From contig MFHO01000001.1 of the NCBI GenBank assembly GCA_001778635.1, forward strand, positions 1-46,652: 46,652 bases of DNA. The letters are read 5' to 3'. Shown here in pieces: positions 21,323 through 45,070 of this stretch (position 1 is its first letter; each line of letters begins with the position of its first letter). Origin of the DNA: Candidatus Giovannonibacteria bacterium RIFCSPHIGHO2_02_FULL_45_13. GTDB lineage: Bacteria > Patescibacteriota > Minisyncoccia > UBA11713 > 2-01-FULL-45-33. The notes below the pieces were generated by a model that saw only the letters and a list, made by a program, of their open reading frames with translations, was not told the DNA's origin and searched no databases. The translations under genes and the position numbers were made by a program.

Positions 21323-21713
21323 CGAAAGGTTTTTTGAGGAGCTGGATATGCCGTGGTCGGGCGCTGTGATTTTTTTGGATGTTGACGGTACTTTACGGCC
21401 GGACGGAGAGAACGATATGAGTCCGGAAGTTTTAAGAAAATTGGATGAATTAAAAACAAAAAACACAGTTCATTTGGTTAGCAATCAAGACGGCAAGGCA
21501 AAAAAACCAAGCCGGAAAGTCGCGGATGGAACAGATATAGCGGGCAAGAAAGTCATAGTGATCGGCGATAAATTTTTAACGGACGGGCTTTTTGCCAAAA
21601 ATATCGGCGCGGAATTTATTAAGGTTAGGCGCAAAATATCAGGCCGCGAATCATTTTTTGTAAAAATTACTTATTTAATGGATGACTTGGCATGGAAAAT
21701 AAGCAATATTTAA
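21312..21713 (+). CDS. HAD-superfamily phosphatase (small, family IIIA/YqeG-like)
   Basis: Motif I FLDVDGTL, motif II LVSN, a conserved K (KKPS), motif III VIGDKFLTDG. The start could alternatively be 21348. Confidence 0.55.
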   Translation: MPDSERFFEELDMPWSGAVIFLDVDGTLRPDGENDMSPEVLRKLDELKTKNTVHLVSNQDGKAKKPSRKVADGTDIAGKKVIVIGDKFLTDGLFAKNIGAEFIKVRRKISGRESFFVKITYLMDDLAWKISNI

Positions 21714-22735
21714 TTACCGGCGGCTCCGGATTTTTGGGCATAAATTTGGTCAGGTTTTTGCTTGCAAAAAATCAGCGTGTAAGAGTTTTGGATATTGCGG
21801 ATTTTGATTATCCCGAAAAAAATAAAATTGAATTTAATTTAGGCGACGTCCGCGATAATCAGGCGATAGATAAAACAATGAGAGGCGTTGACGTTGTTGT
21901 GCATGCTGCTGCAGCCCTCCCGCTTTACTCGCGAGAAGACATTTTTTCAACGGAAGTTGAGGGCACAAAAAATGTTTTAGAAAGCGCAAAAAAGCACAAT
22001 GTTGACAGATTTATTCACATCTCAAGCACTGCGGTTTACGGCATTCCTGATCACCACCCGATTTATGAGAATGATAAACTTATTGGAGTGGGCCCCTACG
22101 GCGAAGCCAAAATCTTGGCAGAAGAGGAGTGTTTGAAAAAAAGAAAAGAAGGAATGGTTGTGTCCATTCTGCGCCCGAAATCTTTTATCGGCCCTGAGCG
22201 GTTGGGAGTTTTCGCGCTTTTTTACGATTGGGCAAGCGCGGGGCATAATTTTCCAATGATCGGCAGCGGCAAAAACCGCTATCAGCTTTTGGATGTTGAG
22301 GATTTATGCGATGCGATTTGGCTTTCGGCGACTTTGCCGAAAGAAAAAACCAATGACGCTTTCAACATTGGCGCCAAAGAATTTATGACGATGCGCGAGG
22401 ACTATCGGGCGGTTTTGGATCGGGCCGGATATGGAAAAAAAATAATCGGCTTTCCGGCGGCGCCGATGATTTTGGCTTTAAGATTTTTAGAGATTTTGCG
22501 CCTTTCCCCGCTTTACAAATGGGTTTACGAAACCGCAGGCAAAGACTCTTTTGTGTCAATAGAAAAAGCGGAGCGAGTTTTGGGGTATCATCCAAAATAT
22601 TCCAACAAACAGGCACTCATTCGCAACTACGAATGGTACTTGGCCAATATGGATAAATTTAAAGATCAATCCGGAATTTCCCACCGAGTGCCGTGGAAAC
22701 AGGGGATACTAAAAATCGCTAAGTATTTTTTTTGA
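21692..22735 (+). CDS. NAD-dependent epimerase/dehydratase (extended SDR)
   Basis: ITGGSGFLGINLVRFLL Rossmann motif and the catalytic YGEAK. Confidence 0.8.
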   Translation: MENKQYLITGGSGFLGINLVRFLLAKNQRVRVLDIADFDYPEKNKIEFNLGDVRDNQAIDKTMRGVDVVVHAAAALPLYSREDIFSTEVEGTKNVLESAKKHNVDRFIHISSTAVYGIPDHHPIYENDKLIGVGPYGEAKILAEEECLKKRKEGMVVSILRPKSFIGPERLGVFALFYDWASAGHNFPMIGSGKNRYQLLDVEDLCDAIWLSATLPKEKTNDAFNIGAKEFMTMREDYRAVLDRAGYGKKIIGFPAAPMILALRFLEILRLSPLYKWVYETAGKDSFVSIEKAERVLGYHPKYSNKQALIRNYEWYLANMDKFKDQSGISHRVPWKQGILKIAKYFF

Positions 22736-25756: not shown

Positions 25757-26456
25757 CTTATCTTTAGTCGTCGCTTGTTACAATGAGGAGCCTCACTTGG
25801 CGGAAAGCATCGCCGAAATTGAGGCGATAATGGAGCAAACTTTGTATTCTTATGAATTGATTTTTATTGATGATTGTAGCCAAGACAAAACAATAGATGT
25901 GATAAAAAAAATTTGCGCAGAGAGAAACAATTGCCGCTATGTTTTTCATAAAAAAAACATCGGGCGCGGAGGAACGGTGCGCGAAGGATTCCTTATGGCG
26001 CGGGCACCCTTCGCCGGTTTTTTGGACATTGATTTAGAGGTGCACGCGCGCTATATTCCAAGCATGATTTTGTGGCTGGAAAAAGGTTATGATATGGTTG
26101 CTATAGAAAGAACCGAAAAATTGAGCTCGAACCCTTATAAGTTATTGCGTTTAATTGTAAGTGGGGTTGGCGCAAGAGTGGTTCGCTATTTTCTGCGCAC
26201 CAACTTCCCAGATTCGGCATCGGGATTTAAGTTTTTTAATATGAACACGATGAAAGATGTGATTGCAAATACCAAAGATGATGGTTGGTTTTGGGATACG
26301 GAAATAATTTTAAGAGCAGAAAAAGCAAATAAAAAACTGAAATCCATACAAGGAGTTTTTGAGCATCGATTGGATAAAAAAAGCACCATGCGCCTTATAC
26401 CCGATACCATCGCGTACATCAAGACAATTTTAAGGTTTAAGAAAAACAAGCTATGA
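25743..26456 (+). CDS. GT2 family glycosyltransferase (ArnC/Dpm1-like)
   Basis: LSLVVACYNEEPHL, LIFIDDCSQDKT, NIGRGGTVREGF, FLDIDLEV. Confidence 0.8.
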   Translation: MNQTDLSLVVACYNEEPHLAESIAEIEAIMEQTLYSYELIFIDDCSQDKTIDVIKKICAERNNCRYVFHKKNIGRGGTVREGFLMARAPFAGFLDIDLEVHARYIPSMILWLEKGYDMVAIERTEKLSSNPYKLLRLIVSGVGARVVRYFLRTNFPDSASGFKFFNMNTMKDVIANTKDDGWFWDTEIILRAEKANKKLKSIQGVFEHRLDKKSTMRLIPDTIAYIKTILRFKKNKL

Positions 26457-27613
26457 GAAAAGATTTTTTAACGTTCGGCAATCCGCTGATAGAGCAGCCG
26501 GAAATCGATGAAGTCGTTGATTCTCTAAAAAGCGGCTGGCTCGGGACTGGGCCGAAGGTAAAAAAGTTTGAAGAGTTGTTCGGCAAATATAAGGGCGTTA
26601 AATATGCCGTGGCTCTTAATTCTTGCACGGCCGCTTTACATTTGGCCTTGCTCGCCATTGGCATAAAACCAAAAGACGAAGTGATTGTGCCGGCAATGAC
26701 TTTTGTCGCAACCGCGAATGTCGTTATTCATGCCGGCGGAACTCCAGTTCTGGCTGATTGCGAGAAGGGCACCATGAACATTGATCCGGCTGATGTGGAA
26801 AAAAAGATTACCAAAAAAACCAAAGCCGTCATCCCAGTGCATATGGCCGGGCGCTCCTGCGATATGGATGCGGTAATGGCGCTGGCTAAAAAATATAATT
26901 TAAAGGTGGTGGAAGACGCCGCTCATGCCGTTGAAACGGAATATCGCGGCAAAAAGGCGGGGACCTTCGGGGATATCGGGTGTTTTAGCTTTTATGCCAC
27001 AAAAAATTTGGTTACCGGAGAGGGCGGCATGGCCATTACAAACAACGGGGAATACGCCGATAAAATGAGGATTTTGTCTTTGCACGGAATTAGCGCGGAT
27101 GCGTGGCAACGATTCGGAAGCGACGGATATAAGCACTATCAGGCGATATACCCGGGCTATAAGTACAACATGATGGATTTGCAGGCGGCGCTGGGCATTC
27201 ATCAGCTAAAGAAAATAGATAAACATTGGGCGAGGCGTCAGGAAATATGGAACAAGTACAACGAAGCGTTTAAAAATTTGCTGGTGTTTTTGCCGGCGCA
27301 GATTGAGCCAAACACGAAGCACGCATATCATCTTTATACTCTGCTTTTAAACATAGACAATTTAAAAATAACCCGCGACCAATTTTTAGAAAAAATGACG
27401 AAGAATAACATTGGGGTTGGGGTGCATTTTATTGCTGTGCATATGCATCAGTATTATCGCGACAGATTCGGATATAAAAAAGGAGATTTTCTCAGCGCAG
27501 AATGGATTTCGGAGAGAACAGTTTCTTTGCCGCTTTCTCCGAAATTAACGGACGACGACGTTAACGACGTTATAACTGCGGTAACGGACGTTTTGAACCA
27601 GCAACGAAAATGA
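26453..27613 (+). CDS. DegT/DnrJ/EryC1/StrS-family PLP-dependent sugar aminotransferase
   Basis: SGWLGTGPKVKKFEE, AVALNSCTAALHLAL, DEVIVPAMTFVATAN, the PLP-lysine region FSFYATKNLVTGEGG. Confidence 0.9.
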   Translation: MRKDFLTFGNPLIEQPEIDEVVDSLKSGWLGTGPKVKKFEELFGKYKGVKYAVALNSCTAALHLALLAIGIKPKDEVIVPAMTFVATANVVIHAGGTPVLADCEKGTMNIDPADVEKKITKKTKAVIPVHMAGRSCDMDAVMALAKKYNLKVVEDAAHAVETEYRGKKAGTFGDIGCFSFYATKNLVTGEGGMAITNNGEYADKMRILSLHGISADAWQRFGSDGYKHYQAIYPGYKYNMMDLQAALGIHQLKKIDKHWARRQEIWNKYNEAFKNLLVFLPAQIEPNTKHAYHLYTLLLNIDNLKITRDQFLEKMTKNNIGVGVHFIAVHMHQYYRDRFGYKKGDFLSAEWISERTVSLPLSPKLTDDDVNDVITAVTDVLNQQRK

Positions 27614-33039: not shown

Positions 33040-34548
33040 CTAGCCGATTTTTTGCAAATGCAGTTTTTTGGCTAGCAAGTCCGCCAGCGGGTCAATTCCT
33101 GCCAATATTTCTTCGAAAGACGACTCCTGCCCCCAGTAGCGGTATAGTTCAAATTCGGCCGTTTCTTCAAACATCGCCGCTAAAAAATTTAAAAGCTCCG
33201 CCTCACTATAATTAAAGTTTTCAAGCTGGGTTTTAACCAGGTTCGGCAAGTCTTCAAGCGCCCGGCAGTTTTTAACGAACGAGAGTTTATTGTAAAAAAC
33301 ATCGCCGCAAGTGATGACCGGTTTTTTTAACAGCATCGCTTCCCAGGCCGCCGTGCTTATTATAGTAATGACAATTTTTGACATTTTTGAAAGCTCAAAG
33401 CTCGTCACCCGCGGATTTATAAACTTAACATTGGGGATTTTTTTCAGTTCTTTATAGTATGAGCGCGGCCGGTAATTTGCCATCGTCGGGTGATCTTTGA
33501 CGTATAGCTTAAACCCCGCAGGCAACGAACGCGCTATTTTGTCCGCCAGATATATTTGGTTATCCATGAAAGGCGATTGCAAAAGTATAGACACATCCGG
33601 CTCTGAATGCATCGGGAAGAACGCGAAATTTTCTTTGGCATCAATTTTGTCGTAAAGATCATCGTAGCCGATAAGACCCCTTATTTTTCTTTTTGCTCTG
33701 TCGATCAACCATTCCGACGGGCGTATAAACGAATAATCCTCCGCCGATTCGCCGGCGAACCGCTGTAGCAGTAATTTGGAGAGAAATTTTAACGATTTGT
33801 ACAGATTGCCGGGCATTAAGAACTTGAGCTGTTTTGGTCTGGCAATTTGTTGGCGTTCCGGGGTGGCGGTTTCATAATAAACTGCCGGCTTTACTCTAAA
33901 ATCACGCAGAAATTTTTCAGCCTTAGCAAAATATGGGTTGTTTTTGTCGGGGCTTGCGACATTTCGCGCAAACGCTTTTTCTACTTCGGGAAACCTTTTA
34001 TGTTCTTCGCTTAAAATGTGAGCATTTTTTATTCCGAACGGCATAAGAGTTAACACGCGAATGCCTTTTTTTTTGGCAACATGATAAAGCAGAAGGGAAC
34101 CGACCGCACCCATAAATCTTATAAAAATAAAATCCGGCTTTTCTTTCTCCAAAAATTCCAAAACGGCTTTTGTTTTGACCTGAAGAATCTTCAGCATCTC
34201 TTCATGGCTGTATTTGGGCGTATTATAAGGATATTCCCGCACAAGCTGATTGAATCTTACTATGCGGTCAACGCAGATATACGGCCATAAATTAGGCAAG
34301 CCGTAATCTTTTTCGATTTGTTTTAAAAAATCGTAATCCAATTCGGCGCTTTTATAGTTATTGTGCAGTTCCTCGTCAAACAAAAGCGCGGAATAGTTTA
34401 TGTCTTTTTGCGATTTTAAAAAATTATAAGCAGGGCGCGTGTATACGTACGCGCAAAAATCCGTAACGCCATATTTTTTTTTCAGAGCCACGGCCAGCGC
34501 GTGCGTCACATACGTGAAAGAGCGCTGGTGCAAAAAACAAGCCTTCAT
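33040..34548 (-). CDS. Capsule_synth (KpsS/KpsC-like) family glycosyltransferase; candidate ulosonic-acid transferase
   Basis: FFPMHSEPDVSIL...LYVKDHPTMA...ITIISTAAWEAMLLKKPVITCGDVFYN matches the general KpsS/KpsC/LipB pattern (LQ..D.q...vKpHP...nStvg.EAl..gkPV...G...Y). I preferred the start at 34548 because the longer 34602 start overlaps neuB. Family call is by eye. Confidence 0.45.
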   Translation of the reverse strand: MKACFLHQRSFTYVTHALAVALKKKYGVTDFCAYVYTRPAYNFLKSQKDINYSALLFDEELHNNYKSAELDYDFLKQIEKDYGLPNLWPYICVDRIVRFNQLVREYPYNTPKYSHEEMLKILQVKTKAVLEFLEKEKPDFIFIRFMGAVGSLLLYHVAKKKGIRVLTLMPFGIKNAHILSEEHKRFPEVEKAFARNVASPDKNNPYFAKAEKFLRDFRVKPAVYYETATPERQQIARPKQLKFLMPGNLYKSLKFLSKLLLQRFAGESAEDYSFIRPSEWLIDRAKRKIRGLIGYDDLYDKIDAKENFAFFPMHSEPDVSILLQSPFMDNQIYLADKIARSLPAGFKLYVKDHPTMANYRPRSYYKELKKIPNVKFINPRVTSFELSKMSKIVITIISTAAWEAMLLKKPVITCGDVFYNKLSFVKNCRALEDLPNLVKTQLENFNYSEAELLNFLAAMFEETAEFELYRYWGQESSFEEILAGIDPLADLLAKKLHLQKIG

Positions 34549-34554
34549 TACTAT

Positions 34555-34583
34555 TTGAAACGCGCAGCCGCCTGAAAAGTTAT
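34555..34583 (+). promoter_or_regulatory. Promoter-like TTGAAA-N17-AGTTAT abutting the neuB start codons
   Basis: -35 at 34555-34560 and -10 at 34578-34583. ATGs lie at 34584 and 34590. The second ATG is about 7 nt downstream of the -10, which is leaderless-type geometry. Confidence 0.35.
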
Positions 34584-35633
34584 ATGTTAATGCGTAATAC
34601 ATTTATTCAGATAGGCGAGAGAAAGATCGGGCAAGGCTACCCGCCTTTTGTGGTCGCGGAGATTGGGATAAATCATGAAGGCGATGCGGCCAAAGCCAAA
34701 CACATGATAGAAGATGCTCATAGCGCTGGCGCGGAGTGCGTTAAGTTTCAATGCCATGTGGTTGATGATGAAATGGTGCCGATAGCCAAAGACATCATTC
34801 CATCGCATACAACAGAGTCCATTTGGGACATAATGGCGCGATGCGCGCTTAACGAAAGGCAGGAAAGGGAACTAAAGGCGTATACGGAAAAACTTGGCAT
34901 GATATACCTTTCAACGCCTTTTTCGCGCGCGGCTGCGGACAGGCTGGCAAGCATGGGCGTTTTGGCGTATAAAATCGGCTCCGGAGAGTGCAATAATTAT
35001 CCTTTGGTTGAACACATTGCTTCTTTTCGCAAGCCGGTTATTTTAAGCACGGGCATGAATGATATAAAATCTATCGGAAAAAGCGTTGAAATTTTAAGAA
35101 AACACAAGGTCCCTTTTGCGTTAATGCACTGCGTATCGATGTACCCCACTCCATACGACAAGGTTCGTTTGGGCGCGCTGGATGATCTGAAGAAAAATTT
35201 CCCGGATGCCGTAATCGGACTCTCCGATCACTCATTGGGGGGTTATACAGCTCTTGCGGCCGTGGCTCTCGGCGCCTCAATTTTAGAAAAGCATTTTACT
35301 TCCGATAAAGCTTGGCCGGGACCGGACATTGCGATATCGCTTGATCCAAAAGAATTGGGAGATCTTGTTAAAGGGTCGCGCGCGATTTATCGTGCGGTTG
35401 GCGGCACGAAAGAAATTTTAAAGGAAGAGCAGCCGGTTATTGATTTTGCCTATGCTTGCGTGGTAACGACAAAAGACATAAAGATGGGGGACGTATTTAA
35501 TGCTGGCAATCTTTGGGTTAAACGCCCGGGCACGGGCGAGATTAAGGCCGCGGAATACAATTCTGTTTTGGATAGAACTGCGAGTAGAAATATTAAAAAA
35601 GACGTTCAGCTGAAACACAGCGACATTATTTAA
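34584..35633 (+). CDS. neuB: Nonulosonic acid synthase (N-acetylneuraminate/legionaminate synthase family, with C-terminal SAF domain)
   Basis: PPFVVAEIGINHEGD, AGAECVKFQ, YLSTPFS, AYKIGSGECNNYPL, ILSTGM, SDHS. The C-terminus has a SAF-like LWVKRPGTG. Confidence 0.92.
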   Translation: MLMRNTFIQIGERKIGQGYPPFVVAEIGINHEGDAAKAKHMIEDAHSAGAECVKFQCHVVDDEMVPIAKDIIPSHTTESIWDIMARCALNERQERELKAYTEKLGMIYLSTPFSRAAADRLASMGVLAYKIGSGECNNYPLVEHIASFRKPVILSTGMNDIKSIGKSVEILRKHKVPFALMHCVSMYPTPYDKVRLGALDDLKKNFPDAVIGLSDHSLGGYTALAAVALGASILEKHFTSDKAWPGPDIAISLDPKELGDLVKGSRAIYRAVGGTKEILKEEQPVIDFAYACVVTTKDIKMGDVFNAGNLWVKRPGTGEIKAAEYNSVLDRTASRNIKKDVQLKHSDII

Positions 35634-35641
35634 ACAGAAAA

Positions 35642-36793
35642 ATGAAAAAAAGAAGAATCCTGTTTATAACGGAGCGGCGCGCGGACTACAGCAGGCTAAA
35701 ACCCATTATACGGCTGGTTCAAAAAAGCAAGAAATTGGAAATGCGTCTTTTGGTTGCGGGCGCACATCTTTTAAGGGGGCTTGGCGAAACCGGAAGGATA
35801 ATAGCAAAAGACGGATTTAAAATTGACGCAGTTTTGCCGATGTTCAGCGAAAACGATCGCGATGACGGAACGGCTATGGTTGCCGGAATGGGGCGCGCGC
35901 TTGTCGGGATGGCGGATATCATTCCAAAACTAAAGCCCGATATAATATTTTGCGGGTTTGATTTGGGCGCGCATCTCGCGGCCGCAATCGCCGGAATGCA
36001 TCTTAATATTCATGTGGCGCATATTCAGGGTGGGGAGGTGAGCGGAACCGTTGACGAGGTGTTAAGACACGCCATTACTAAATTTGCGCATATGCATTTC
36101 GTTGCCACTCCGGCCAGCGCGAAAAGGATAGTTAAATTGGGGGAGGACCCTAAATATGTTTTTTTGGTGGGCAGCCCGAGCCTTGACAGCATTCGCAGTG
36201 TAAAGTATTTTCCCAAAGAAATTATAGCTGAAAAATACGGTTTTGATCCGCGCAAAAAATTAATTATTTTTGCGCAACACCCGGTAACCACCGAGGAGGG
36301 GGCGGTGTTAAAACAGATCTTCGCCAGCATAGAGGCCGTGAAATACATAGTTAAAAAATATGACGCGGATGCTTTGGCGATATATTCAAACAGCGACGCC
36401 GGCGGCAGGCGCATTATAAACCGCTTGCTGAAATCCGGAATAAAAGTTTTTCCGCACATAGTTTATGAAGATTTTCTCCGGCTTCTTAATGTTGCCGACG
36501 CGCTGGTTGGAAATTCAAGCACTGGCATTCACGAGGCCCCCTCATTCGGACTCCCGACCGTAAACATAGGAACAAGGCAGCAGCTGCGGGAACGCGGGCA
36601 AAACATCATAGATGTTCCTAACGAAAAAACCGCAATAATTAAAGCAATTGAAAAATCTTTTTTTGATAAAATTTTTATTAGCAAAGTAAAATCTGGGAGA
36701 AACCCGTATGATCAGGGAAATACTGCGATGAAGGTTGTTAAAATTTTAGAAACGATAAAACTGCCGAATGTTCAAAAAGTAATCACTTATTGA
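35642..36793 (+). CDS. neuC: UDP-N-acetylglucosamine 2-epimerase (hydrolysing), NeuC/LegG family
   Basis: ERRADYSRLKPI, HIQGGEVSGTVDEVLRHAITKFAHMHF, NSSTGIHEAPSFGLPTVNIGTRQ. Confidence 0.9.
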   Translation: MKKRRILFITERRADYSRLKPIIRLVQKSKKLEMRLLVAGAHLLRGLGETGRIIAKDGFKIDAVLPMFSENDRDDGTAMVAGMGRALVGMADIIPKLKPDIIFCGFDLGAHLAAAIAGMHLNIHVAHIQGGEVSGTVDEVLRHAITKFAHMHFVATPASAKRIVKLGEDPKYVFLVGSPSLDSIRSVKYFPKEIIAEKYGFDPRKKLIIFAQHPVTTEEGAVLKQIFASIEAVKYIVKKYDADALAIYSNSDAGGRRIINRLLKSGIKVFPHIVYEDFLRLLNVADALVGNSSTGIHEAPSFGLPTVNIGTRQQLRERGQNIIDVPNEKTAIIKAIEKSFFDKIFISKVKSGRNPYDQGNTAMKVVKILETIKLPNVQKVITY

Positions 36794-36796
36794 TTC

Positions 36797-37666
36797 ATGA
36801 GAATACTTCTTATCGGCGGCACGGGGTTCATCGGCGAATATGTAACCAAAGAACTCGCGCGGCTGCACCACAAAGTTTATGTTGTCCACAAGTCTCCGTT
36901 GAAGGCCAAAAACAAGTTTGGGGGAGTGAGGTATTTCCGCACAGATCTTAATTTGCAAAATCCGCAGCTTAAACGCATTTTTAAGAGGGTGGATGTTTTG
37001 GTCACTTTAATACAGCCGGATTTGAGGCAGATGAAGAATGTTATTTTGGCGGCGCGCGGCGCAAAAGAGCTAAAAAAGATTGTTTATTTGTCAACCCTGC
37101 TTTTGTATCCGGACTCCGCTTCTCCGCAGAAAGAGACCGCTGCGCCAAAGCCGGTAACGCAGTACGAACGGAAAAAATACAAAGAGGAGTCTATGATCTC
37201 GCGTTTTGCAAAAAAAGAAAATTATCCGCTTACGGTGTTGAGGGTGGCGACTGTTTACGGAGACGTAAAAAATAAGGGAATCGTCAATCGTGTTTTTCTT
37301 TCTTTGATTCGCAGGGACGATTTGACTATACGCGGCGGGAGAAGCAATCTAAAGATGAGAGATTATATTTTTGTGGAGGACGCCGCCAAATTAATAGCAT
37401 TTTTTATCTTAAGCAAGCAAAAAAAACCGCTGGAGGTGATAAATATTTCCACCGGCCGCGGATACTCCGTTCACGACTTGGTCGGCAGAATAGAGGCGAT
37501 TACCGGCGGAAAAGCGGAGTTTAAAACGGGCAAACCGATTTCGGACAAAAACATCAATATCGGCGATAATAAAAAAATGAAGGCATTGTCTCAGTATAAA
37601 TTCAAGCATAATTTGACGACGGGCCTTAAAAAAACTTACAAAAATTATTTAAAAATTTATTCATGA
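36797..37666 (+). CDS. NAD(P)-dependent epimerase/reductase (SDR family)
   Basis: MRILLIGGTGFIGEYV Rossmann motif, 289 aa. Confidence 0.7.
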   Translation: MRILLIGGTGFIGEYVTKELARLHHKVYVVHKSPLKAKNKFGGVRYFRTDLNLQNPQLKRIFKRVDVLVTLIQPDLRQMKNVILAARGAKELKKIVYLSTLLLYPDSASPQKETAAPKPVTQYERKKYKEESMISRFAKKENYPLTVLRVATVYGDVKNKGIVNRVFLSLIRRDDLTIRGGRSNLKMRDYIFVEDAAKLIAFFILSKQKKPLEVINISTGRGYSVHDLVGRIEAITGGKAEFKTGKPISDKNINIGDNKKMKALSQYKFKHNLTTGLKKTYKNYLKIYS

Positions 37667-38622
37667 CAAAGAATTTATCCGCGTGCATTATTTGCGGTTC
37701 CGAAAACCGCAAAGTTTTAAGGAAAAAGATAAGATACGGCATAAGGCGCAAAGTCCTTCAGTGCGTGCGCTGTTCTTTAATTTTCTTGGAGCCCTTGGCA
37801 GGCGTTTCAGCGGCCTATTACAGAAGCAACAAATACAGGGCTTTACACGGGCCAGATTTAAAAAAACAATCTTCTCCGCGCGAAATTTTCAATACATACC
37901 TGCCCTTTCAAAAACCGATTATACAAAAACTTGAACCAATTTTAAGGCCGAACATGAAAGTTTTGGACGTGGGCTGTTCAACTGGCCACTTTTTGGAGGC
38001 TCTTCGCGGAAGGGTTAAAACCAGAGTCGGCATTGAATTAGACGAAGCCGCCGTAAAATTTATAAAAAGGAATTTAAATTTCAAGGTTTATTCGGAGCCG
38101 ATAGAGCGGGTGAATATGGCCGAAGGTCCGTTTGATTTAATTACGGCTCTGCAGGTTTTGGAACACGTCCCCGACCCTTTTGGTTTTCTGTCCGGAATTG
38201 CGAAAAATTTAAAACCGAACGGCTATTTGTATTTGGAACTCCCAAACGTTTCCGACGTTCTGCTGACTGTTTTCAAAGTGAAAGAGTACGAAGATTTTTA
38301 CTACCGCGAGCCGCATGTTTATTACTATTCAAAAGACACACTCGGCGCTTTGTTAAAAATGGCGGGGTTTGAAGGCAAGCCGGGCAATGTGCAGCGGTAT
38401 AATTTTTTAAATCATCTAAATTGGATACTTGCCGGAAAGCCGCAAAGCAATTTTAATGTTGGAAACGCCCAGCCTGTTTTGGTAAGCGCGGGAAGCGCAA
38501 GTGCGGCGATTAAAGACGATTTTAATGAATTTATTCGCGGCACCGACTCAAAATACAAGCAACTTGTGGGAAAATATAATTTGGGAGAAAATTTAACCTT
38601 TCTCGGGCGTAAGAAGTTATAA
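37663..38622 (+). CDS. Class I SAM-dependent methyltransferase with N-terminal CxxC...CxxC zinc ribbon
   Basis: CIICGS...CVRCS, VLDVGCSTGHF, ALQVLEHVPDP, LKPNGYLYLELPN. ATGA overlap with the upstream gene. Confidence 0.75.
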   Translation: MTKNLSACIICGSENRKVLRKKIRYGIRRKVLQCVRCSLIFLEPLAGVSAAYYRSNKYRALHGPDLKKQSSPREIFNTYLPFQKPIIQKLEPILRPNMKVLDVGCSTGHFLEALRGRVKTRVGIELDEAAVKFIKRNLNFKVYSEPIERVNMAEGPFDLITALQVLEHVPDPFGFLSGIAKNLKPNGYLYLELPNVSDVLLTVFKVKEYEDFYYREPHVYYYSKDTLGALLKMAGFEGKPGNVQRYNFLNHLNWILAGKPQSNFNVGNAQPVLVSAGSASAAIKDDFNEFIRGTDSKYKQLVGKYNLGENLTFLGRKKL

Positions 38623-38626
38623 TGTT

Positions 38627-39373
38627 ATGAAAACGCGCGATACAAAGAAAAAAGAGCTTTTAGCCATTATCCCGGCCAGAGCCGGCTCTACCCGCGTGCC
38701 AAATAAGAATATTCGGCCTTTTGGCGGTAAGCCGCTTATTGCTTATACTATTTTGCAGGCCAGAGAAAATCCGTTTATTGACAGAGTGATTGTTGACACG
38801 GATTCGCCGAAAATTGCGGCGATAGCAAAAAAATACGGAGCCGAGGTTCCTTATTTGCGTCCGAAGCGGCTTGCCACATGCAGCGCCAGCGTAAACGACG
38901 CTATCTTGCTTTTGCTTCAGAGACTGGAAAGGGATGAGAATTACAAGCCAACCCATTTCATACTTTTGCAAACGACTTCGCCTTTGCGGGAACACGGAGA
39001 CATCCAAGCTTGTTGGGATTTAATGAACAGCACCGATGCCACGACAGTGCTGACTATTATGCAGACGAATCCGCGTTTTTATCATTTGGATTCAAAACAA
39101 AACATTATTTTAGTGAATCGCCCCAAAGGAGGCGCGTTCAGCCCGAACACGCAGGACTGGCGGCCGGGCTATGTTTTGAACGGCTGCTTCGTGTATATCG
39201 TAAAAACGCCGGCTTTTTTGAAAGAAAAAAATGTTTACACAAAAAATACGAAAGCCGTGGTGTGCGACAGATGGCGTTCCGTGGATATAGACTATCCGGA
39301 AGATTTCGCGCTTGCGGAATATCTTTACAAAAACAAAAGCAAATTAGCTCGGCGCATACAAAATTTTAAATAG
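38627..39373 (+). CDS. neuA: Acylneuraminate (nonulosonate) cytidylyltransferase
   Basis: LAIIPARAGSTRVPNKNIRPFGGKPLIAYTI, VDTDSPKIA, LLQTTSPLR. Confidence 0.9.
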   Translation: MKTRDTKKKELLAIIPARAGSTRVPNKNIRPFGGKPLIAYTILQARENPFIDRVIVDTDSPKIAAIAKKYGAEVPYLRPKRLATCSASVNDAILLLLQRLERDENYKPTHFILLQTTSPLREHGDIQACWDLMNSTDATTVLTIMQTNPRFYHLDSKQNIILVNRPKGGAFSPNTQDWRPGYVLNGCFVYIVKTPAFLKEKNVYTKNTKAVVCDRWRSVDIDYPEDFALAEYLYKNKSKLARRIQNFK

Positions 39374-39380
39374 GATTTTT

Positions 39381-40319
39381 ATGAAGACCGCGATTGTCGG
39401 ATTCGGCTCCATCGGACAAAGGCATTACAAAAATTTAAGCGGACTGGCGAAGAACATTGTTGTTTTTTCCAAAAGGACCGATGTTGTTTTGCCGTTTCAG
39501 GTCAGAAGTTGGCGAGATTTTTATAAAAATGGGCCTTACGACGGAATAATTATCGCCAACGAGACCTCAAAACACATAAGCGCTTTGAAAAAATGTATGC
39601 GCATGACAAAAAATATTTTCATGGAAAAGCCGCTTTCTAATAATGCTAGCGGTTTAAATGATGTTGCCAGCGGCTTGAAAAGAAAAAAAATAAATATTTG
39701 GGTCGGATATAATTGGCATTTTTCAAAGACGCTTTTGAAAATTAAGAGCATTCTTCGGCAAAAAAAGCTCGGCCGCGTTTATTATATGCGCGTTTCCGTT
39801 GGGCAGGATTTGAGAGGATGGCGGCCTGGACGGGATTACAGCAAAATTTATTCAGCAAAGAAAAAGCTTGGCGGCGGCGTGATTCTGGATTTGGTGCATG
39901 ATATAAATTACCCGGCTTGGCTTTTGGACGATGTTTTGATTCCGCAGATATCGTACGTCAGAAAAATATCCAATCTTAAGATAGATACGGAGGATTTTGC
40001 CGAAAGCGTATTTATCGGCAAAAAGACCGGCGCGATAGTGTCGGTGCACCAGGATTATTTGCGAACTCAAGGAAAAAGATCGCTGGAAATCGCCGGGAGC
40101 AAAGGAAGTTTGGTTTGGGATTCCTTAAGCCAAGAGATTGTTTTGGAAACTCCTAAAAAAACAACCAAAGCGCGCGTTCCGGAAGAGCGCAATAAGATGT
40201 ATGAGAAAGAAATTAAATTTTTCTTGGATCAAATAAGGCGCGGCAAACGTTTTTCTAATATCAGCGAGGCGATCCGCGACATAAAAAATATTGAATGGTT
40301 AAAAAAATATGGCAGATAA
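39381..40319 (+). CDS. Gfo/Idh/MocA-family oxidoreductase
   Basis: MKTAIVGFGSIGQRHYKNL Rossmann N-terminus and the FMEKPLS (EKP) motif. Confidence 0.75.
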   Translation: MKTAIVGFGSIGQRHYKNLSGLAKNIVVFSKRTDVVLPFQVRSWRDFYKNGPYDGIIIANETSKHISALKKCMRMTKNIFMEKPLSNNASGLNDVASGLKRKKINIWVGYNWHFSKTLLKIKSILRQKKLGRVYYMRVSVGQDLRGWRPGRDYSKIYSAKKKLGGGVILDLVHDINYPAWLLDDVLIPQISYVRKISNLKIDTEDFAESVFIGKKTGAIVSVHQDYLRTQGKRSLEIAGSKGSLVWDSLSQEIVLETPKKTTKARVPEERNKMYEKEIKFFLDQIRRGKRFSNISEAIRDIKNIEWLKKYGR

Positions 40320-41304
40320 AAAACTTACATTTTTGCAAATCGGGCTGGGTTCCATGGGAAAGCGCCGCATACGAAATCTCAACGCCAACGGCGAAAAAAA
40401 TATTATTGGTTTTGATGTGTCTCCGGAGCGGCGCAGGGAAGTTGAGGAAAAATACGGCATAAAAACAATTGATGATTTAAAAAAACTTTCTGACAAGGAT
40501 TTTGACGCGGTAATTATTTCTACGCCGCCGAACGCCCACGGAGATTATATTAGATTTGCGCTCCGCAATAAAAAGCATTTTTTTGCGGAAGTCGCGACTT
40601 CCGATGACGGCTACAAAGACATATTGGAAAACAAAAATTTAAACATCGTGACGGCGCCGTCTTGCACCTTGCGCTATTTTTTTCCGATCAGGACCATAAA
40701 AAAAGCCGTAAATGAAGGAAAAATCGGCAAAATTTTGGCGTACCAGTACCATGTCGGGCAATATTTGCCGGATTGGCATCCGTGGGAGGATTACAGGAAG
40801 GTGTTTTTTTCCAAAAAAGAAACGGGCGCTTGCCGCGAACTTTTTCCGTTTGAGCTTTGCTGGATTAATTGGCTTGTCGGGGCGGAGGTCGCCGATGTTT
40901 CCGGTGTCTTCGGCAAAGTTTCAGATTTGGATATGGATGCGGACGATGTTTTGTTTGCGAATTTGCGCCACAAAAACAATGTTTATGGCGCTATTTTTAT
41001 TGATGCGATTTCCCGCAAACCGTTCAGGACCCTACAGCTTTTGGGAAGCGACGGCGCAATTGAATGGGAATGGCAGGACTGGGTAATAAAAATTTACGAT
41101 GCCAAAACGAAAGAAACCGAAGTTATTAAAGCGCCGAAAGAAGATCCCACTCCGGGCTACACCGTTCAGTCCGAAGGAATGCATCAAGACGAATTAAAGG
41201 CCTTTTTAGACGCGATCTACGGCCTCGCGCCGTATCCCTATACTTTTGAAGAAGACTTGCAAAATTTACAGACTCTGTATAAACTTGAGAAAAATGAGCA
41301 ATAA
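40309..41304 (+). CDS. Gfo/Idh/MocA-family oxidoreductase (second, divergent copy)
   Basis: LQIGLGSMGKRRIRNL, VIISTPPNAHGDY. The EKP position is replaced by AEVATS. Confidence 0.7.
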   Translation: MADKKLTFLQIGLGSMGKRRIRNLNANGEKNIIGFDVSPERRREVEEKYGIKTIDDLKKLSDKDFDAVIISTPPNAHGDYIRFALRNKKHFFAEVATSDDGYKDILENKNLNIVTAPSCTLRYFFPIRTIKKAVNEGKIGKILAYQYHVGQYLPDWHPWEDYRKVFFSKKETGACRELFPFELCWINWLVGAEVADVSGVFGKVSDLDMDADDVLFANLRHKNNVYGAIFIDAISRKPFRTLQLLGSDGAIEWEWQDWVIKIYDAKTKETEVIKAPKEDPTPGYTVQSEGMHQDELKAFLDAIYGLAPYPYTFEEDLQNLQTLYKLEKNEQ

Positions 41305-42532
41305 TAACGATACGAAAATAAAAAAAGTGGAGGGCGAAACCCTCAAGACGTTTCAGGAAGAAATTCCTTCCCAATATTTTTCTCACAAAGATGAAGCCGC
41401 TTACCGCGATTACGTAAAGAACGCGGAGTTTGTTTACAGAGAACTGTTCAAATTCCCTCCGCAAATGTTTCGAGACGCCGAACTTATAGACTTCGGAGCC
41501 GGAACGGGAGAGAATACGGTGTATTTGGCAAACTGGGGCGCCAAATGCACGCTGGTTGAAATGAACCAGAAAGCGCAGGATATATCAAAGGAAGTATTTA
41601 GGAAATATGCGCGGAATTTTGACGACCATCATTTTGTCTGTTCTTCAATTTTTGATTATAATCCGGCCGATAACGAAAAGTATGACATTGTTCATTGCAG
41701 GGCCGTGCTCTCGCACACCGCGGCGAAGGAAGCGGCTTTCAAAAAAATCGCAAAGCTTGTAAAGCCCGGGGGATTTTTGATTTTTGGAGACCCGAATAAA
41801 GCCGGGGGATTTCAGAATATGCTTCAGCGCTTCGCCGTTTATCATTTTGCTTCAACACCTGATGAAATGGTGAAAGTCTGCGAGTTCCTTTTTAAGGAAG
41901 ATATTGACCGCAGTGAGAAGTTTATTCCTCGCACCCGTCGCGCGATTATTTTTGACCGGTGGGTAATTCAATCACAGGACGACCCGTCAATCGCAGAAGT
42001 CGTGAATTGGATGAAGAATAGCGGTTTGCGTTTGTATTCATCGTATCCTCCATTTGCCATACCGCTTCGCGGTGATTCGCTGCATCACCAGCCAAAGTTT
42101 GACACCGCATCGGTATCTAATCTTGCCAATCTGGGCGTGCTTACAGAACTGGTTTGGATGCTGCAGACGGAATCGGACAGCGAAGCTTTCCCAAAATTTA
42201 CCGAGGGGCTTACTCCGTTTGCGGAGGCGTTTACAAACCTTACTTCATGCGTGGCGAATTTTAACAAAGACACAAGTCTGGACGTCGGCCGCTTTCAAGA
42301 GTTGTCGCGCTCACTGGCAAAGTCTTCCGACGCGCTGAACTTTCTTCAGCCTCTTCGCGAGAAGCTTCTGCGAGCTCTCGCGGAGGCCGATGAATTTGTT
42401 GGTTTGGTTTATGCGGCCGATTTGGATAAATTGCGCAAGTTCATTGATAAAACAGAAGTTCTTTTCAAGGGCGCTTGCGGCATGCGCCATGCGGACTTCA
42501 TTGCTTATAAGCCCGTTGAGAACAAAGATTAA
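41294..42532 (+). CDS. Class I SAM-dependent methyltransferase fused to an unrecognised ~200-aa C-terminal domain
   Basis: LIDFGAGTGENT (motif I), VKPGGFLIFGDPN. I moved the start to 41294, which overlaps the upstream stop by 11 nt. I did not recognise the C-terminal half. Confidence 0.65.
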   Translation: MSNNNDTKIKKVEGETLKTFQEEIPSQYFSHKDEAAYRDYVKNAEFVYRELFKFPPQMFRDAELIDFGAGTGENTVYLANWGAKCTLVEMNQKAQDISKEVFRKYARNFDDHHFVCSSIFDYNPADNEKYDIVHCRAVLSHTAAKEAAFKKIAKLVKPGGFLIFGDPNKAGGFQNMLQRFAVYHFASTPDEMVKVCEFLFKEDIDRSEKFIPRTRRAIIFDRWVIQSQDDPSIAEVVNWMKNSGLRLYSSYPPFAIPLRGDSLHHQPKFDTASVSNLANLGVLTELVWMLQTESDSEAFPKFTEGLTPFAEAFTNLTSCVANFNKDTSLDVGRFQELSRSLAKSSDALNFLQPLREKLLRALAEADEFVGLVYAADLDKLRKFIDKTEVLFKGACGMRHADFIAYKPVENKD

Positions 42533-42534
42533 TT

Positions 42535-43686
42535 ATGAAAATTAACAGCCATAACGAATGGGACAAGCTTAAGGAGATTATTGTTGGCCGCGGAGACGGG
42601 CACGCGAGTTTGGTGTTTCCCTGCCCGCCGATAGGCGGGGCGCATGGGCCGGTAACTGAAGAATTGCTGCAGAAAGCGACGGCGTTGGCAAAAAAAGCTT
42701 TTCCGCAATGGCTGATTGATGAAATTAATGAAGATTTGGACGGGCTGGCCAAAGTTTTAAAATCATTCGGCGTGAAAGTGCACAGACCGGATATTGCTCA
42801 TAACAACAAATTTTTCGCGACGCCTTACTTTAGCGCTGTCGGCGACCACGTTTACAATATGAGAGATCTTCATCTTGTGGTCGGAAATACCGTTGTTGAG
42901 TCGCCGTCGCAGGAACAGCATCGTTATTTTGAAGCAATGGGGCTTTATCCGATTTGGCATGAGTATTTAAAAGATGGTTTTCGCTGGATAGCGGGACCAA
43001 AGCCGAGAATTCCGGGAGACCATATGGTAGTTTATGCGGCTGACGGAAGGGACGGGTATGATGACGGGCAAAAATATATAAAGCTGAAAGAAGACGAAAT
43101 TTTATTTGAGGCGGCCAACACGGTTCGGCTGGGGAGGGACCTTTTGTATTTGGTATCCAGGTCAGGCAATTATCTTGGAGCAAAATGGCTGCAAAGCGTT
43201 TTGGGTGACGAGTATCGTGTTCATACTACCGACAAAATTTATCGCTCCAGCCACATTGATTCTACCGCTCTGGCTTTGGCTCCGGGCGTGATTCTTTTGA
43301 ATAGCAGCCGCGTAAATGAGAATAATTGTCCGGAAATTCTGAAGAAATGGAAAAAATTGTATTTTGCCGACATTGTCCAGACCCCGGAGAAAACTCTGGA
43401 ATTTCATGATAAAGTCAGAAAACCGGTTCATCAGCAGCTTTTGGCGATGGGAGTCCATTCTGGGTTGGATTCCGTGGCTTCTCCGTGGATTGGCATGAAT
43501 GTGCTTTCCGTTGACCCCAAAACTGTTATCGTTGATAAGATTCAGGTTCCGCTCATTAAATTTCTTGAACAAAATGGGTTTACGGCAGTTCCAATCAGCT
43601 TTCGGCATTCGTATTACATGGGCGGCATCCATTGCAGCACGCTGGACACAGTCAGAGAAAGCAAGCTGGAGAGCTATTTTGGTTAA
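42535..43686 (+). CDS. Amidinotransferase (glycine amidinotransferase / StrB1 inosamine-phosphate amidinotransferase family)
   Basis: The N-terminus INSHNEWDKLKEIIVGRGDG parallels the GATM/StrB1 block (sxNEWDPLEEVIVG). The C-terminus YYMGGIHCSTLD carries the catalytic-Cys block (GGxHCxTxD) of the amidinotransferase fold. Confidence 0.8.
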   Translation: MKINSHNEWDKLKEIIVGRGDGHASLVFPCPPIGGAHGPVTEELLQKATALAKKAFPQWLIDEINEDLDGLAKVLKSFGVKVHRPDIAHNNKFFATPYFSAVGDHVYNMRDLHLVVGNTVVESPSQEQHRYFEAMGLYPIWHEYLKDGFRWIAGPKPRIPGDHMVVYAADGRDGYDDGQKYIKLKEDEILFEAANTVRLGRDLLYLVSRSGNYLGAKWLQSVLGDEYRVHTTDKIYRSSHIDSTALALAPGVILLNSSRVNENNCPEILKKWKKLYFADIVQTPEKTLEFHDKVRKPVHQQLLAMGVHSGLDSVASPWIGMNVLSVDPKTVIVDKIQVPLIKFLEQNGFTAVPISFRHSYYMGGIHCSTLDTVRESKLESYFG

Positions 43687-43691
43687 AATCT

Positions 43692-44639
43692 ATGGCATAC
43701 CAAAAAAAAATTCCGCATGGAATTATGTTCCATCATTTTTATAACGAAGCGCATCCAAGCGGGCAGGGAGCCATTTCTGCTGACGACTTGGATAACCTAT
43801 TGCGCTATGTGGGCCTAGAAAGAATTTTGCCGCCGTTTGAGTGGTTAAAAAGGTTGAAAGAAAACAAGTTAAAGAATGGGGACGTTTGTTTGACTTTTGA
43901 TGACGCTCTTTTGTGCCAGACGGAAATCGCCTTGCCTGTTTTAGAGAAACACGGCTTTAAGGCCTTCTGGTTTATTTACTCCGGCGTTTTTGAGGGAAAG
44001 CAGGAAAATTTGGAACTCTATAGATTTTTCCGTGTAAAATATTTTGATAACATAGATGATTTTTATCAGATATTTTTTAAAAAAGTTTCTGAAGCTGGAA
44101 TTGCTGCGGACACAGACCCTGAATTTGAGAAAAGGATGCTGGAGAGTTTCCCGTTTTATTCCATAAACGACATTAGATTCCGCTTTCTGCGAGACAAGGC
44201 GCTCGGCAGAATAAATTATGAAAAAATCATGGACGCCATGTTAAAAGATTGCGGTTTGGACAAAAAAGCAATGTCAAAACGTTTATGGATGTCGGATAAT
44301 GATTTAAAATATCTAAGCGGTAGCGGGCACGTTATAGGATTGCATTCTTATTCTCATCCTACTGCGCTCGCGGATTTGTCTTTTGAAGAACAATTCAGCG
44401 AGTATAAAAAAAATTACTCACACATAAAAAGAGTTACGGGTCAGAACCCGGTCGTAGCGGCGCATCAAGTGAGTTCTTATAATGATGATACTTTGAAGAT
44501 TCTAGAAAAGCTCGGCATTGTTTGCTGTTTCCGTTCCAATATGTTTCCCAAAAAAGAAGGGGGCGCGCTTAACGCTAGCGCTCTTGAAATGGCCCGGGAA
44601 GACCACGCCAATGTTATGAGAATGATGAAAGATAGATAA
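43692..44639 (+). CDS. Polysaccharide deacetylase (CE4/NodB-like) family protein
   Basis: HGIMFHHF, VCLTFDDALLCQ (the TFDD metal/catalytic block), GLHSYSHP. I moved the start to 43692. An A9 tract lies at 43702-43710. Confidence 0.7.
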   Translation: MAYQKKIPHGIMFHHFYNEAHPSGQGAISADDLDNLLRYVGLERILPPFEWLKRLKENKLKNGDVCLTFDDALLCQTEIALPVLEKHGFKAFWFIYSGVFEGKQENLELYRFFRVKYFDNIDDFYQIFFKKVSEAGIAADTDPEFEKRMLESFPFYSINDIRFRFLRDKALGRINYEKIMDAMLKDCGLDKKAMSKRLWMSDNDLKYLSGSGHVIGLHSYSHPTALADLSFEEQFSEYKKNYSHIKRVTGQNPVVAAHQVSSYNDDTLKILEKLGIVCCFRSNMFPKKEGGALNASALEMAREDHANVMRMMKDR

Positions 44640-44653
44640 TGGTTTAAATAATT

Positions 44654-45070
44654 ATGAAAGATTGTGTTCTTATCCGCAAAAAGGAGGTCAATAATGTTCT
44701 TGCGCTGGAACCGATGCGTGGCAAAAGGCAGCTAGAGCCGTTCAGGGCGTTATTTCTTTCTAAAAAAATCCCGTTTGGAATTATGGAAGACCACGAGGTT
44801 TCGGAAGCCGAAGCCGAGGTGCATAAACACGAAGCCGATTTGTGGATTGGGCTGGAAGGCAAGGCAGAATTTATTTACGGCGGCGAGCTTGTTGAGCCTT
44901 GGATTCGCGAAGGCACGCATAGCAACGAACTCGGTGGCGAGGATATAAAAGGCGGCACAAAAGTTGTTTTAAAAGCCGGAGACATTCTTTACATTCCGGC
45001 AGGTCAACCTCATATGCACACATCTTCAAAAACCGCCCGCATGCTCATCATAAAAATTCCTGAAAGATAA
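44654..45070 (+). CDS. Cupin-domain protein
   Basis: Cupin motif 1-like EVHKHEADLWIGLEG and motif 2-like GDILYIPAGQPHMH. The start is uncertain (44654 or 44714). Confidence 0.6.
   Translation: MKDCVLIRKKEVNNVLALEPMRGKRQLEPFRALFLSKKIPFGIMEDHEVSEAEAEVHKHEADLWIGLEGKAEFIYGGELVEPWIREGTHSNELGGEDIKGGTKVVLKAGDILYIPAGQPHMHTSSKTARMLIIKIPER

Follow-up and report, generated by a model that had tools for sequence, protein, structure and literature searches.

An amidinotransferase, a deacetylase and a methyltransferase coupled to nonulosonic-acid genes: a possible route to guanidino-decorated surface sugars

Why should a bacterium keep an arginine-type amidinotransferase gene inside an operon for nonulosonic acids, the outermost sugars on many microbial surfaces, which control how phages, grazers, hosts and lectins recognize the cell? 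The question is raised by a 46,652-nucleotide stretch of contig MFHO01000001.1 (the window, meaning the whole of the DNA analyzed) from Candidatus Giovannonibacteria bacterium RIFCSPHIGHO2_02_FULL_45_13, which belongs to the Candidate Phyla Radiation (CPR). An initial annotation, made from the DNA letters, placed the gene in one co-directional string with neuB, neuC, neuA, two Gfo/Idh/MocA oxidoreductases, methyltransferases, a CE4 deacetylase and a cupin, and our analysis confirmed this layout and the tight spacing of the genes (Table 1). We propose, with confidence that is evenly balanced, that genes 41294-44639 encode a three-enzyme tailoring module, in which a methyltransferase (MT2), an arginine:amine amidinotransferase and a CE4 de-N-acetylase would act on the operon's nonulosonic acid to give a guanidino and then a methylated product.

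The amidinotransferase, which begins MKINSHNEWDKLKEIIVG, is labeled "hypothetical protein" by NCBI (a 100% identical record from a Candidatus Giovannonibacteria metagenome-assembled genome (MAG), CPR). The protein has both sequence blocks quoted in the initial annotation, NEWD...EIIVG (residues 7-18) and GGIHCSTLD (residues 363-371). In a phmmer search against PDB sequences the protein gave full-length matches, spanning query residues 3-382, to StrB1, the L-arginine:inosamine-phosphate amidinotransferase of Streptomyces griseus (1bwd, E 5.9e-68), to SxtG (6u1r, 9.7e-55), to HsvA (5wpi, 1.1e-44) and to human AGAT (1jdw, 1.4e-43), and among matches with E up to 10 there was no hydrolase of the arginine deiminase (ADI) or dimethylarginine dimethylaminohydrolase (DDAH) type. 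An AlphaFold2 (AF2) model built from 33 homologues (pLDDT 87.6, pTM 0.88) led to the same grouping: amidinotransferases occupied ranks 1-7 of a Foldseek comparison with the PDB (E 3e-34 to 7.5e-29, TM 0.73-0.85), with StrB1 the best match (E 3e-34, TM 0.77/0.85, 35% identity), followed by SxtG, HsvA and AGAT, whereas ADI and DDAH were remote (E ~1e-10, 12-13% identity, against 28-35% for the transferases). By sequence and by fold, the protein groups with the transferases and not with ADI/DDAH. A Pfam test that had been suggested as proof of family membership did not provide it, as PF02274 matched the C-terminus alone at 12.8 bits (E 0.061, cutoff 22.8) and NCBIfam gave no match; PF02274 is now an ADI-centred model, and most homologues in the clade likewise have no precomputed match. 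We therefore base the assignment to a family on the sequence and fold comparisons with the PDB.

In the active site, Cys367 and His240 align with StrB1 C332 and H227 and are invariant in all 43 clade members, and D242, D111, R259 and S316, aligned with StrB1 D229, D108, R246 and S280, are kept in at least 42 of the 43. In AGAT we take the residues that bind the arginine donor to be Asp170, Asp305, Arg322 and Ser355. The AGAT catalytic triad is Asp254/His303/Cys407 (PMC3684758). At the triad-Asp position, where StrB1 has D179 (FDAAN), the window enzyme has Glu192 (FEAAN), and the Cys-His-Asp triad anticipated by the initial annotation is in fact Cys-His-Glu. This glutamate is kept in 41 of 43 clade members and is invariant in clade alignment A1. 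ADI and DDAH, the hydrolases of the superfamily, presumably use Cys-His-Glu, and seven of the related loci described below carry a WbpG/HisH/HisF acetamidino system that is a possible source of an amidine substrate, so that the protein might instead be a hydrolase or deiminase that trims an amidino or guanidino group. We consider this very improbable: its identity to the transferases far exceeds that to the hydrolases, the residues that bind the alpha-carboxylate and amino groups of arginine (R259, S316, D111 and D242) are conserved, the window is without an acetamidino system, and 14 of the 103 wider-family representatives also have glutamate at this position. Given this last count, Glu192 does not exclude membership among the amidinotransferases. 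It appears to be a conservative variant that leaves the hydrolase reading faintly alive. For the same reason we rejected Glu192 as a clade-specific hallmark.

What kind of amine might such an enzyme accept? StrB1, whose acceptor is a phosphorylated (anionic), sugar-like primary amine, shares with it the Cys, the His, the arginine-binding residues and the segment before the catalytic His; it differs in overall sequence (~35% identity), in having Asp179 in place of Glu, and in the absence of an extra helix (~285-304) and an insertion (~168-181) found in the window's clade. The pre-His segment reads I-Y-R-S-S-H240, like L-Y-A-S-T-H227 of StrB1 and unlike the D-P-N-P-M of the AGAT 300-flap, which governs small-amine specificity (PMC4887976). 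When family members were clustered at 50%, the clade formed a small, well-separated branch (representatives at 414, 378 and 340 bits), beyond which scores fall to ~265 bits and ~40% identity. On these comparisons the enzyme is best described as a new, distinct branch of the known arginine amidinotransferase family.

Two alternatives turn on the identity of the acceptor. With StrB1 as the closest characterized relative, and inositol 2-dehydrogenase (IolG-like) as the best NCBIfam match of the first Gfo/Idh/MocA oxidoreductase (Gfo1), one could imagine that Gfo/Idh/MocA enzymes and an aminotransferase make an inosamine that is amidinated as in streptidine synthesis. We regard an aminocyclitol acceptor as extremely improbable, since the Gfo1 match scores 74 bits where the cutoff is 355, related loci showed neither an inositol-phosphate synthase nor a kinase, and the NeuA-Gfo-adh_short arrangement recurs in those loci, including legionaminic-type ones; legionaminic clusters pair NeuA with a PtmF-type protein, which Gfo1 presumably resembles. 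StrB1 itself belongs to an aminoglycoside antibiotic cluster rather than a surface-glycan operon and has no CE4 partner. Alternatively, a side-chain substituent (aminoacyl or aminoalkyl) of the sugar might provide the primary amine that serves as acceptor, with the CE4 enzyme removing the N-acetyl group that protects this substituent and the amidinotransferase working as AGAT does on glycine and HsvA on polyamines. Nonulosonic acids are known to bear N-acyl groups, among them N-acetyl-alanyl and N-methyl-glutamyl, and the characterized members of the family do take small amines. These include glycine, lysine and polyamines (PMC4887976; PDB molecule names). The pre-His segment, StrB1-like and not as in the small-amine enzymes (PMC4887976), argues against such an acceptor, as does the lack, in related loci, of any consistent linkage between the module and an ATP-grasp, ligase or acyltransferase gene, and we judge it improbable.

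Gene neighborhoods bear on a role in glycan tailoring. Scanning one genome for each GTDB species gave 43 loci (named here by L numbers), 42 of them with the amidinotransferase open reading frame (ORF) called, and their ORFs were clustered into families (f numbers). The carriers span CPR lineages, one DPANN archaeon, Binatia, Rokubacteria, Pirellulales/Planctomycetales, Acidobacteriota, SAR202, Leptospiraceae, Burkholderiales, Latescibacterota, many members of the Pelagibacteraceae (SAR11) and two genomes of Prochlorococcus. No partner accompanies the amidinotransferase more constantly than the CE4 protein, a homologue of which lies within two genes in 34 of the 42 loci, is adjacent in 28 and is on the same strand in 32. 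MT2 lies within two genes in 23 loci, or in 29 if the alternative methyltransferase family f11 is counted, and in L014 a further methyltransferase type precedes the CE4 gene. At least one of NeuA, NeuB and NeuC is encoded within 10 kb in 28 loci, and at least two of them in 21. PtmE-like CBS-nucleotidyltransferases occur in 10 loci. Linkage to neu genes is thus strong among the orthologues, and the combination of deacetylase, amidinotransferase and methyltransferase is a conserved module rather than an accident of the window genome.

The association also holds in the reverse direction. Three proteins of the CE4 clade, picked regardless of any amidinotransferase, all had an amidinotransferase-sized neighbor without a Pfam match, and in the two places for which DNA was available tblastn verified this neighbor (L048, 71% identity; L049, 55%). 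As a control, 151 family members at 30-40% identity were drawn from the viral collection IMG/VR and 80 of their loci were kept (L050-L129); in all 80, around these out-group members, no CE4, MT2 or Neu gene was found within 8 kb. Plasmid and phage collections held only relatives at ≤37% identity (Streptomyces StrB1-like and Campylobacter phage CP220). Amidinotransferase-family genes as such are common in viral contigs, including those of phages that infect Campylobacter and of one Synechococcus phage (records CP220, F379 and S-SCSM2R).

A concrete example is L044/L045, on one 4.46-Mb contig, where an amidinotransferase 69% identical to that of the window belongs to a complete legionaminic-type operon of co-directional genes with overlapping ends, in the order MT2-like, Gfo, NeuA, adh_short, unknown gene, NeuB, NeuC, PglD-type LbH acetyltransferase, CE4, amidinotransferase, CBS-nucleotidyltransferase, dehydratase and DegT. 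Variants of this arrangement are found in L046, L048 and L049. Beside the CE4-amidinotransferase pair, L046 (13001-13645) and L049 (6157-7962 and 10399-11484) encode a PF04199 cyclase, a carbamoyltransferase and a radical-SAM/SPASM protein, extra tailoring genes that suggest further decoration chemistry in such loci.

The same survey bears on whether the module might make a free guanidino metabolite, such as guanidinoacetate or, with MT2, a creatine-like methylated product, and be merely co-located with glycan genes. AGAT and GAMT form the classical amidinotransferase/methyltransferase pair, 14 of the 42 loci have no nonulosonic-acid gene within 10 kb, and two loci of Acidobacteriota (L019 and L022) have the gene on its own. 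Against this, the gene is start/stop-coupled inside nonulosonic-acid operons in many phyla, its constant CE4 partner would have no role in such a pathway, and family members from the out-group have no such linkage; a free product strikes us as decidedly improbable. In L019 (9968-12254) and L022 the clade amidinotransferase occurs without CE4, methyltransferase or Neu genes and near large Ig-repeat (ASH/DUF1573) proteins, and the enzyme may serve another purpose there. Its gene in L019 adjoins one for an ornithine carbamoyltransferase, which fits ornithine as a by-product.

For the CE4 protein we propose the role of unmasking the acceptor amine. A profile of its clade matched 6dq3 in the PDB (E 3.5e-28), and the T68-F-D70-D71 (TFDD) motif, H218, H222 and H14 are kept at ≥95% across the clade, where R302 and D304 are conserved too, so that the Asp-His-His metal site, the catalytic Asp and a further His are all kept. 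Its start at 43692 matches the N-termini of homologues and no signal peptide was seen on reading the N-terminus; judged from sequence, the enzyme is cytoplasmic. In the NodB fold signature, metal site and catalytic Asp it resembles the CE4 de-N-acetylases of glycans and lipid-linked sugars (PgaB, PgdA and ArnD-type enzymes), from which it differs in its cytoplasmic location, in a ~100-aa insertion between motifs 1 and 2, and in forming its own clade tied to the amidinotransferase. The initial annotation had looked elsewhere for a free amine, to the lack of an N-acetyltransferase. That lack is real, as no part of the window yielded an LbH or GNAT acetyltransferase, but the argument applies to the window alone: many related loci carry PglD-type acetyltransferases beside the module, and PglD-type LbH proteins occur in 10 of the 42. 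The amine therefore probably stems from the action of the CE4 enzyme and not from the absence of an acetyltransferase.

MT2 (412 aa) consists of a class I methyltransferase domain and a conserved C-terminal extension of ~220 aa, is conserved along its full length in the family alignment, and has a start, at 41294, that matches the N-termini of its homologues. PDB searches with the single sequence and with a profile both returned generic class I matches (PEAMT, UbiG), which do not discriminate between an N- and an O-methyltransferase. The other methyltransferase of the operon, MT1, is specific to the window: in the clustering it is a singleton family with no partner in related loci.

If the module tailors a sugar, which sugar does the operon make? 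The core of epimerase (NeuC), PEP-condensing synthase (NeuB) and CMP-sugar synthetase (NeuA) is complete within the one operon. The window NeuB scored 410 bits (E 6e-122) against the Neu5Ac synthase SiaC of Neisseria meningitidis (1xuu), whereas the NeuB of L044, a locus with the full legionaminic-type gene set, is closest to Bacillus subtilis SpsE (SpsE/Leg-like). SpsE is an enzyme of a legionaminic-acid pathway (PMC7439481). In terms of sequence, then, the window NeuB is Neu5Ac-synthase-like and those of related loci are of legionaminic type. A CPR genome with a true sialic-acid-type pathway may be of interest in its own right.

The difference in backbone stops short of NeuA, the first gene of a cassette NeuA-Gfo1-Gfo2-MT2-amidinotransferase-CE4. 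In L001-L004, L007 and L048 the window NeuA finds counterparts at 58-67% identity, and NeuB only at 34-41%. The contrast is clearest in L048, a complete CPR genome of 651,549 bp (CP066687.1), whose segment 2247-8945 (NeuA-Gfo1-Gfo2-(methyltransferase)-MT2-amidinotransferase-CE4) is 61-85% identical to window positions 38627-44639, while its NeuC and NeuB, at 34-39% identity, are of a different type, with LbH, DegT and dehydratase genes after them. These figures argue for a portable activation-and-tailoring cassette that has been joined to different backbone pathways.

It is also possible that the module acts before condensation, amidinating the 4-amino group of an NDP-4-amino-4,6-dideoxy-hexosamine or another amino sugar, in which case a legionaminic-type acid would carry the guanidino group at N7 rather than at N5, or a hexose would carry it. 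DegT aminotransferases occur within 10 kb in 22 of the 42 loci. The amidinotransferase directly precedes CBS-nucleotidyltransferase, dehydratase and DegT genes in L044, and in L036, where CE4 is missing, it comes after PtmE-like nucleotidyltransferase and dehydratase genes, facing DegT. The window has a DegT gene, two 4,6-dehydratase and two nucleotidyltransferase genes upstream, with no acetyltransferase. We nevertheless think amidination before condensation unlikely. A near-constant CE4 enzyme would be needless if DegT supplied a free amine, the amidinotransferase travels with the NeuA cassette and not with early pathway genes, and the NeuB of the window is of Neu5Ac type, in an operon that holds no aminotransferase, dehydratase or acetyltransferase.

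Returning to tailoring of the nonulosonic acid itself, the pathway could run as follows. NeuC and NeuB would build an N5-acetylated nonulosonic acid, of Neu5Ac type here and of legionaminic type in most related loci, which NeuA probably activates to the CMP-sugar. The cytoplasmic CE4 enzyme would then strip an N-acetyl group, most parsimoniously at N5 because this is the sole N-acetyl common to Neu5Ac-type and legionaminic-type backbones. The CMP-sugar is favored as substrate on two grounds, the instability of neuraminic acid in its free form and the lack of a signal peptide in both enzymes. Transfer from arginine through an S-amidino-cysteine is established chemistry for the family: Cys367 would attack the guanidino carbon of L-arginine, ornithine would leave, and the S-amidino enzyme would hand its amidino group to the freed sugar amine, converting it to a guanidino group. 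MT2 would methylate the product, plausibly on a guanidino nitrogen by analogy with AGAT/GAMT, and the cell surface would carry, as end product, a cationic (N-methyl)guanidino nonulosonic acid. The enzyme families and folds are established, the catalytic and arginine-binding residues are conserved, and the genes are coupled to one another and to nonulosonic-acid genes; from these we infer what the acceptor is, which position is modified, in which order the steps run and where methylation occurs. Wherever computation could probe the initial interpretation, it was supported.

Several points weigh against this pathway. Its acceptor is deduced from gene neighborhood and not from chemistry. Glutamate replaces the triad Asp, even if it does so in other family members too, and PDB matches do not assign MT2 as N- or O-methylating. 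That NeuA proteins 62% identical (window and L048) should serve both Neu5Ac-type and Leg-type backbones is not obviously expected. A third of the loci (14/42) have no nonulosonic-acid core gene within 10 kb, L019 and L022 are not glycan contexts, and the amidinotransferase of L036, where CE4 is absent, may use an NDP-4-amino sugar as acceptor. A search for cultured carriers identified none: all organisms named for the loci were MAGs or single-amplified genomes (SAGs).

How would such a pathway compare with known ones? AGAT, CyrA, AmtA, SxtG and HsvA share its family and its expected ping-pong S-amidino-cysteine chemistry, and the module mirrors the amidinotransferase-methyltransferase pairing of AGAT and GAMT; the acceptors of these enzymes are small amines (glycine, lysine, polyamines and a saxitoxin intermediate), and none of the enzymes is linked to nonulosonic-acid genes or to a deacetylase. 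Their 300-flap sequence also differs (PMC4887976). The known route to a cationic amidine on these sugars is that of the PseA/WbpG-HisH-HisF systems, which form acetamidino groups in pseudaminic- and legionaminic-acid pathways and place a cationic amidine-type group on a nonulosonic-acid nitrogen in the same kind of locus, through unrelated protein families and chemistry. These systems amidate the carbonyl of an existing N-acetyl group to give CH3-C(=NH)-NH-R, with no need for deacetylation, whereas the product of the module would be H2N-C(=NH)-NH-R. The acetamidino set is found side by side with the module in 7 of 42 loci, and a tblastn search with representatives of families f12, f15 and f16 found none in the window. 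A guanidino sugar could easily have been missed at low mass resolution, being nearly isobaric with the N-acetyl form: acetyl (C2H2O, 42.0106 Da) and amidino (CH2N2, 42.0218 Da) differ by +0.011 Da.

The initial annotation knew of no described pathway of this kind, and a full-text literature search (subscription-only papers outside its scope) agreed, returning no prior report on an amidinotransferase in nonulosonic-acid biosynthesis: in the papers covered, neither amidinotransferases nor guanidino groups were joined to nonulosonic, legionaminic, pseudaminic or sialic acids, to O-antigen or capsule, to SAR11, Prochlorococcus or CPR, or to polysaccharide deacetylases. The novelty lies in combination and context, as the CE4 and methyltransferase partners belong to known superfamilies. 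The recurrence of this undescribed trio across many phyla points, at the level of sequence, to an unreported guanidino-decorated sugar.

Table 1. Features of the window, with the matches or other evidence on which each assignment is based
Feature	Position	Strand	Evidence or remark
rpoC	716-4342		
rve-type integrase/transposase gene	5364-6482	-	
ORF, 425 aa	11969-13246		without Pfam/NCBIfam match
ORF, 473 aa	15508-16929		without Pfam/NCBIfam match
UbiA-family prenyltransferase	20399-21322		
Small HAD-like phosphatase	21312-21713		
SDR	21692-22735		
DegT aminotransferase	26453-27613		
ORF, 551 aa	27610-29265		without Pfam/NCBIfam match
Capsule_synth (KpsS/KpsC-like)	33040-34602	-	PF05159 E 7e-9; divergent from neuB
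Operon	34584-45070	+	11 co-directional ORFs, intergenic spacing -11 to +14 nt
NeuB, nonulosonate synthase, Neu5Ac-synthase type	34584-35633	+	PF03102 E 2e-74; TIGR03569 373 bits
NeuC, hydrolysing UDP-GlcNAc 2-epimerase	35642-36793	+	TIGR03568 367 bits, cutoff 236
SDR epimerase/dehydratase-family protein	36797-37666	+	PF01370
MT1 methyltransferase	37663-38622	+	Methyltransf_23 E 9e-28
CMP-nonulosonate synthetase (NeuA/PseF-like)	38627-39373	+	PF02348; TIGR03584 155 bits
Gfo/Idh/MocA oxidoreductase 1 (Gfo1)	39381-40319	+	Pfam; 61% identity in L048
Gfo/Idh/MocA oxidoreductase 2 (Gfo2)	40309-41304	+	Pfam; 57-65% identity in L001-L004, L007, L048
MT2, SAM-dependent methyltransferase, 412 aa	41294-42532	+	Pfam Methyltransf_23/11/12
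Arginine-type amidinotransferase (GATM/StrB1 family), 383 aa	42535-43686	+	PDB phmmer, AF2 model, Foldseek, residue conservation
CE4/NodB-family deacetylase	43692-44639	+	PF01522 63.1 bits, cutoff 23.1
Cupin_2 protein, 138 aa	44654-45070	+	PF07883 E 8e-10

The operon forms the 3′ end of a glycan-biosynthesis island of ~38 kb, which is preceded by rpoB/rpoC and then an integrase gene. Between rpoC and the start of the island, at this rve-type gene, G+C falls from ~0.48 to ~0.41, and it reaches ~0.37 deeper in the island; the gene and the fall in G+C together fit an island that is mobile or acquired. Divergent from neuB is a KpsS/KpsC-like gene whose product is a candidate glycosyltransferase for the activated sugar, and homologues of it, at 45-47% identity, adjoin the module in L001, L003, L004, L007 and L017. 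The annotated 5′ ends of this gene and neuB overlap by 19 nt (34584-34602), and one of the two start codons is thus probably annotated too far upstream. At the other end of the operon, the cupin has homologues in only L004 and L011 among the related loci and is an accessory gene outside the core module; it has a weak match (E 6e-4) to DUF386/YhcH, which we take to be a cupin family linked to sialic-acid metabolism in enterobacteria. Elsewhere in the island, start/stop-coupled genes for a UbiA-family prenyltransferase, a small HAD-like phosphatase and an SDR stand in an order reminiscent of polyprenyl-phosphate-pentose pathways, and among three ORFs that matched nothing in Pfam or NCBIfam, that of 551 aa has homologues (family f30) in L004, L006 and L017.

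More broadly, and with confidence somewhat short of even, we suggest that the module marks an unrecognized class of surface sugar: nonulosonic acids of sialic and legionaminic type in which the N5 acetamido group is replaced by guanidino or N-methylguanidino, made by a portable cassette spread by horizontal transfer through CPR, DPANN, SAR11, Prochlorococcus, Planctomycetota and others. To our knowledge, the N-substituents of known nonulosonic acids are acyl and acetamidino only, and a guanidino group would be new chemistry for the class; the guanidino-sialic compounds that we know of are synthetic drugs such as zanamivir, and the module, if it acts as proposed, would offer glyco-engineers an enzymatic route to guanidino-sialic acids. 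As annotation pipelines miss the amidinotransferase clade, for which neither Pfam nor NCBIfam gives a match, a dedicated HMM would be useful.

If the proposal is correct, the amidinotransferase family would extend from toxins, antibiotics and creatine to cell-surface glycans, and the guanidino group would turn an anionic sugar into a zwitterion with an arginine-like head group. Carriers of the module include some of the most abundant and least cultivable organisms, among them SAR11, Prochlorococcus, CPR and DPANN, and such a sugar could bear on phage-host specificity in the ocean and in groundwater, and on the pool of guanidino nitrogen.

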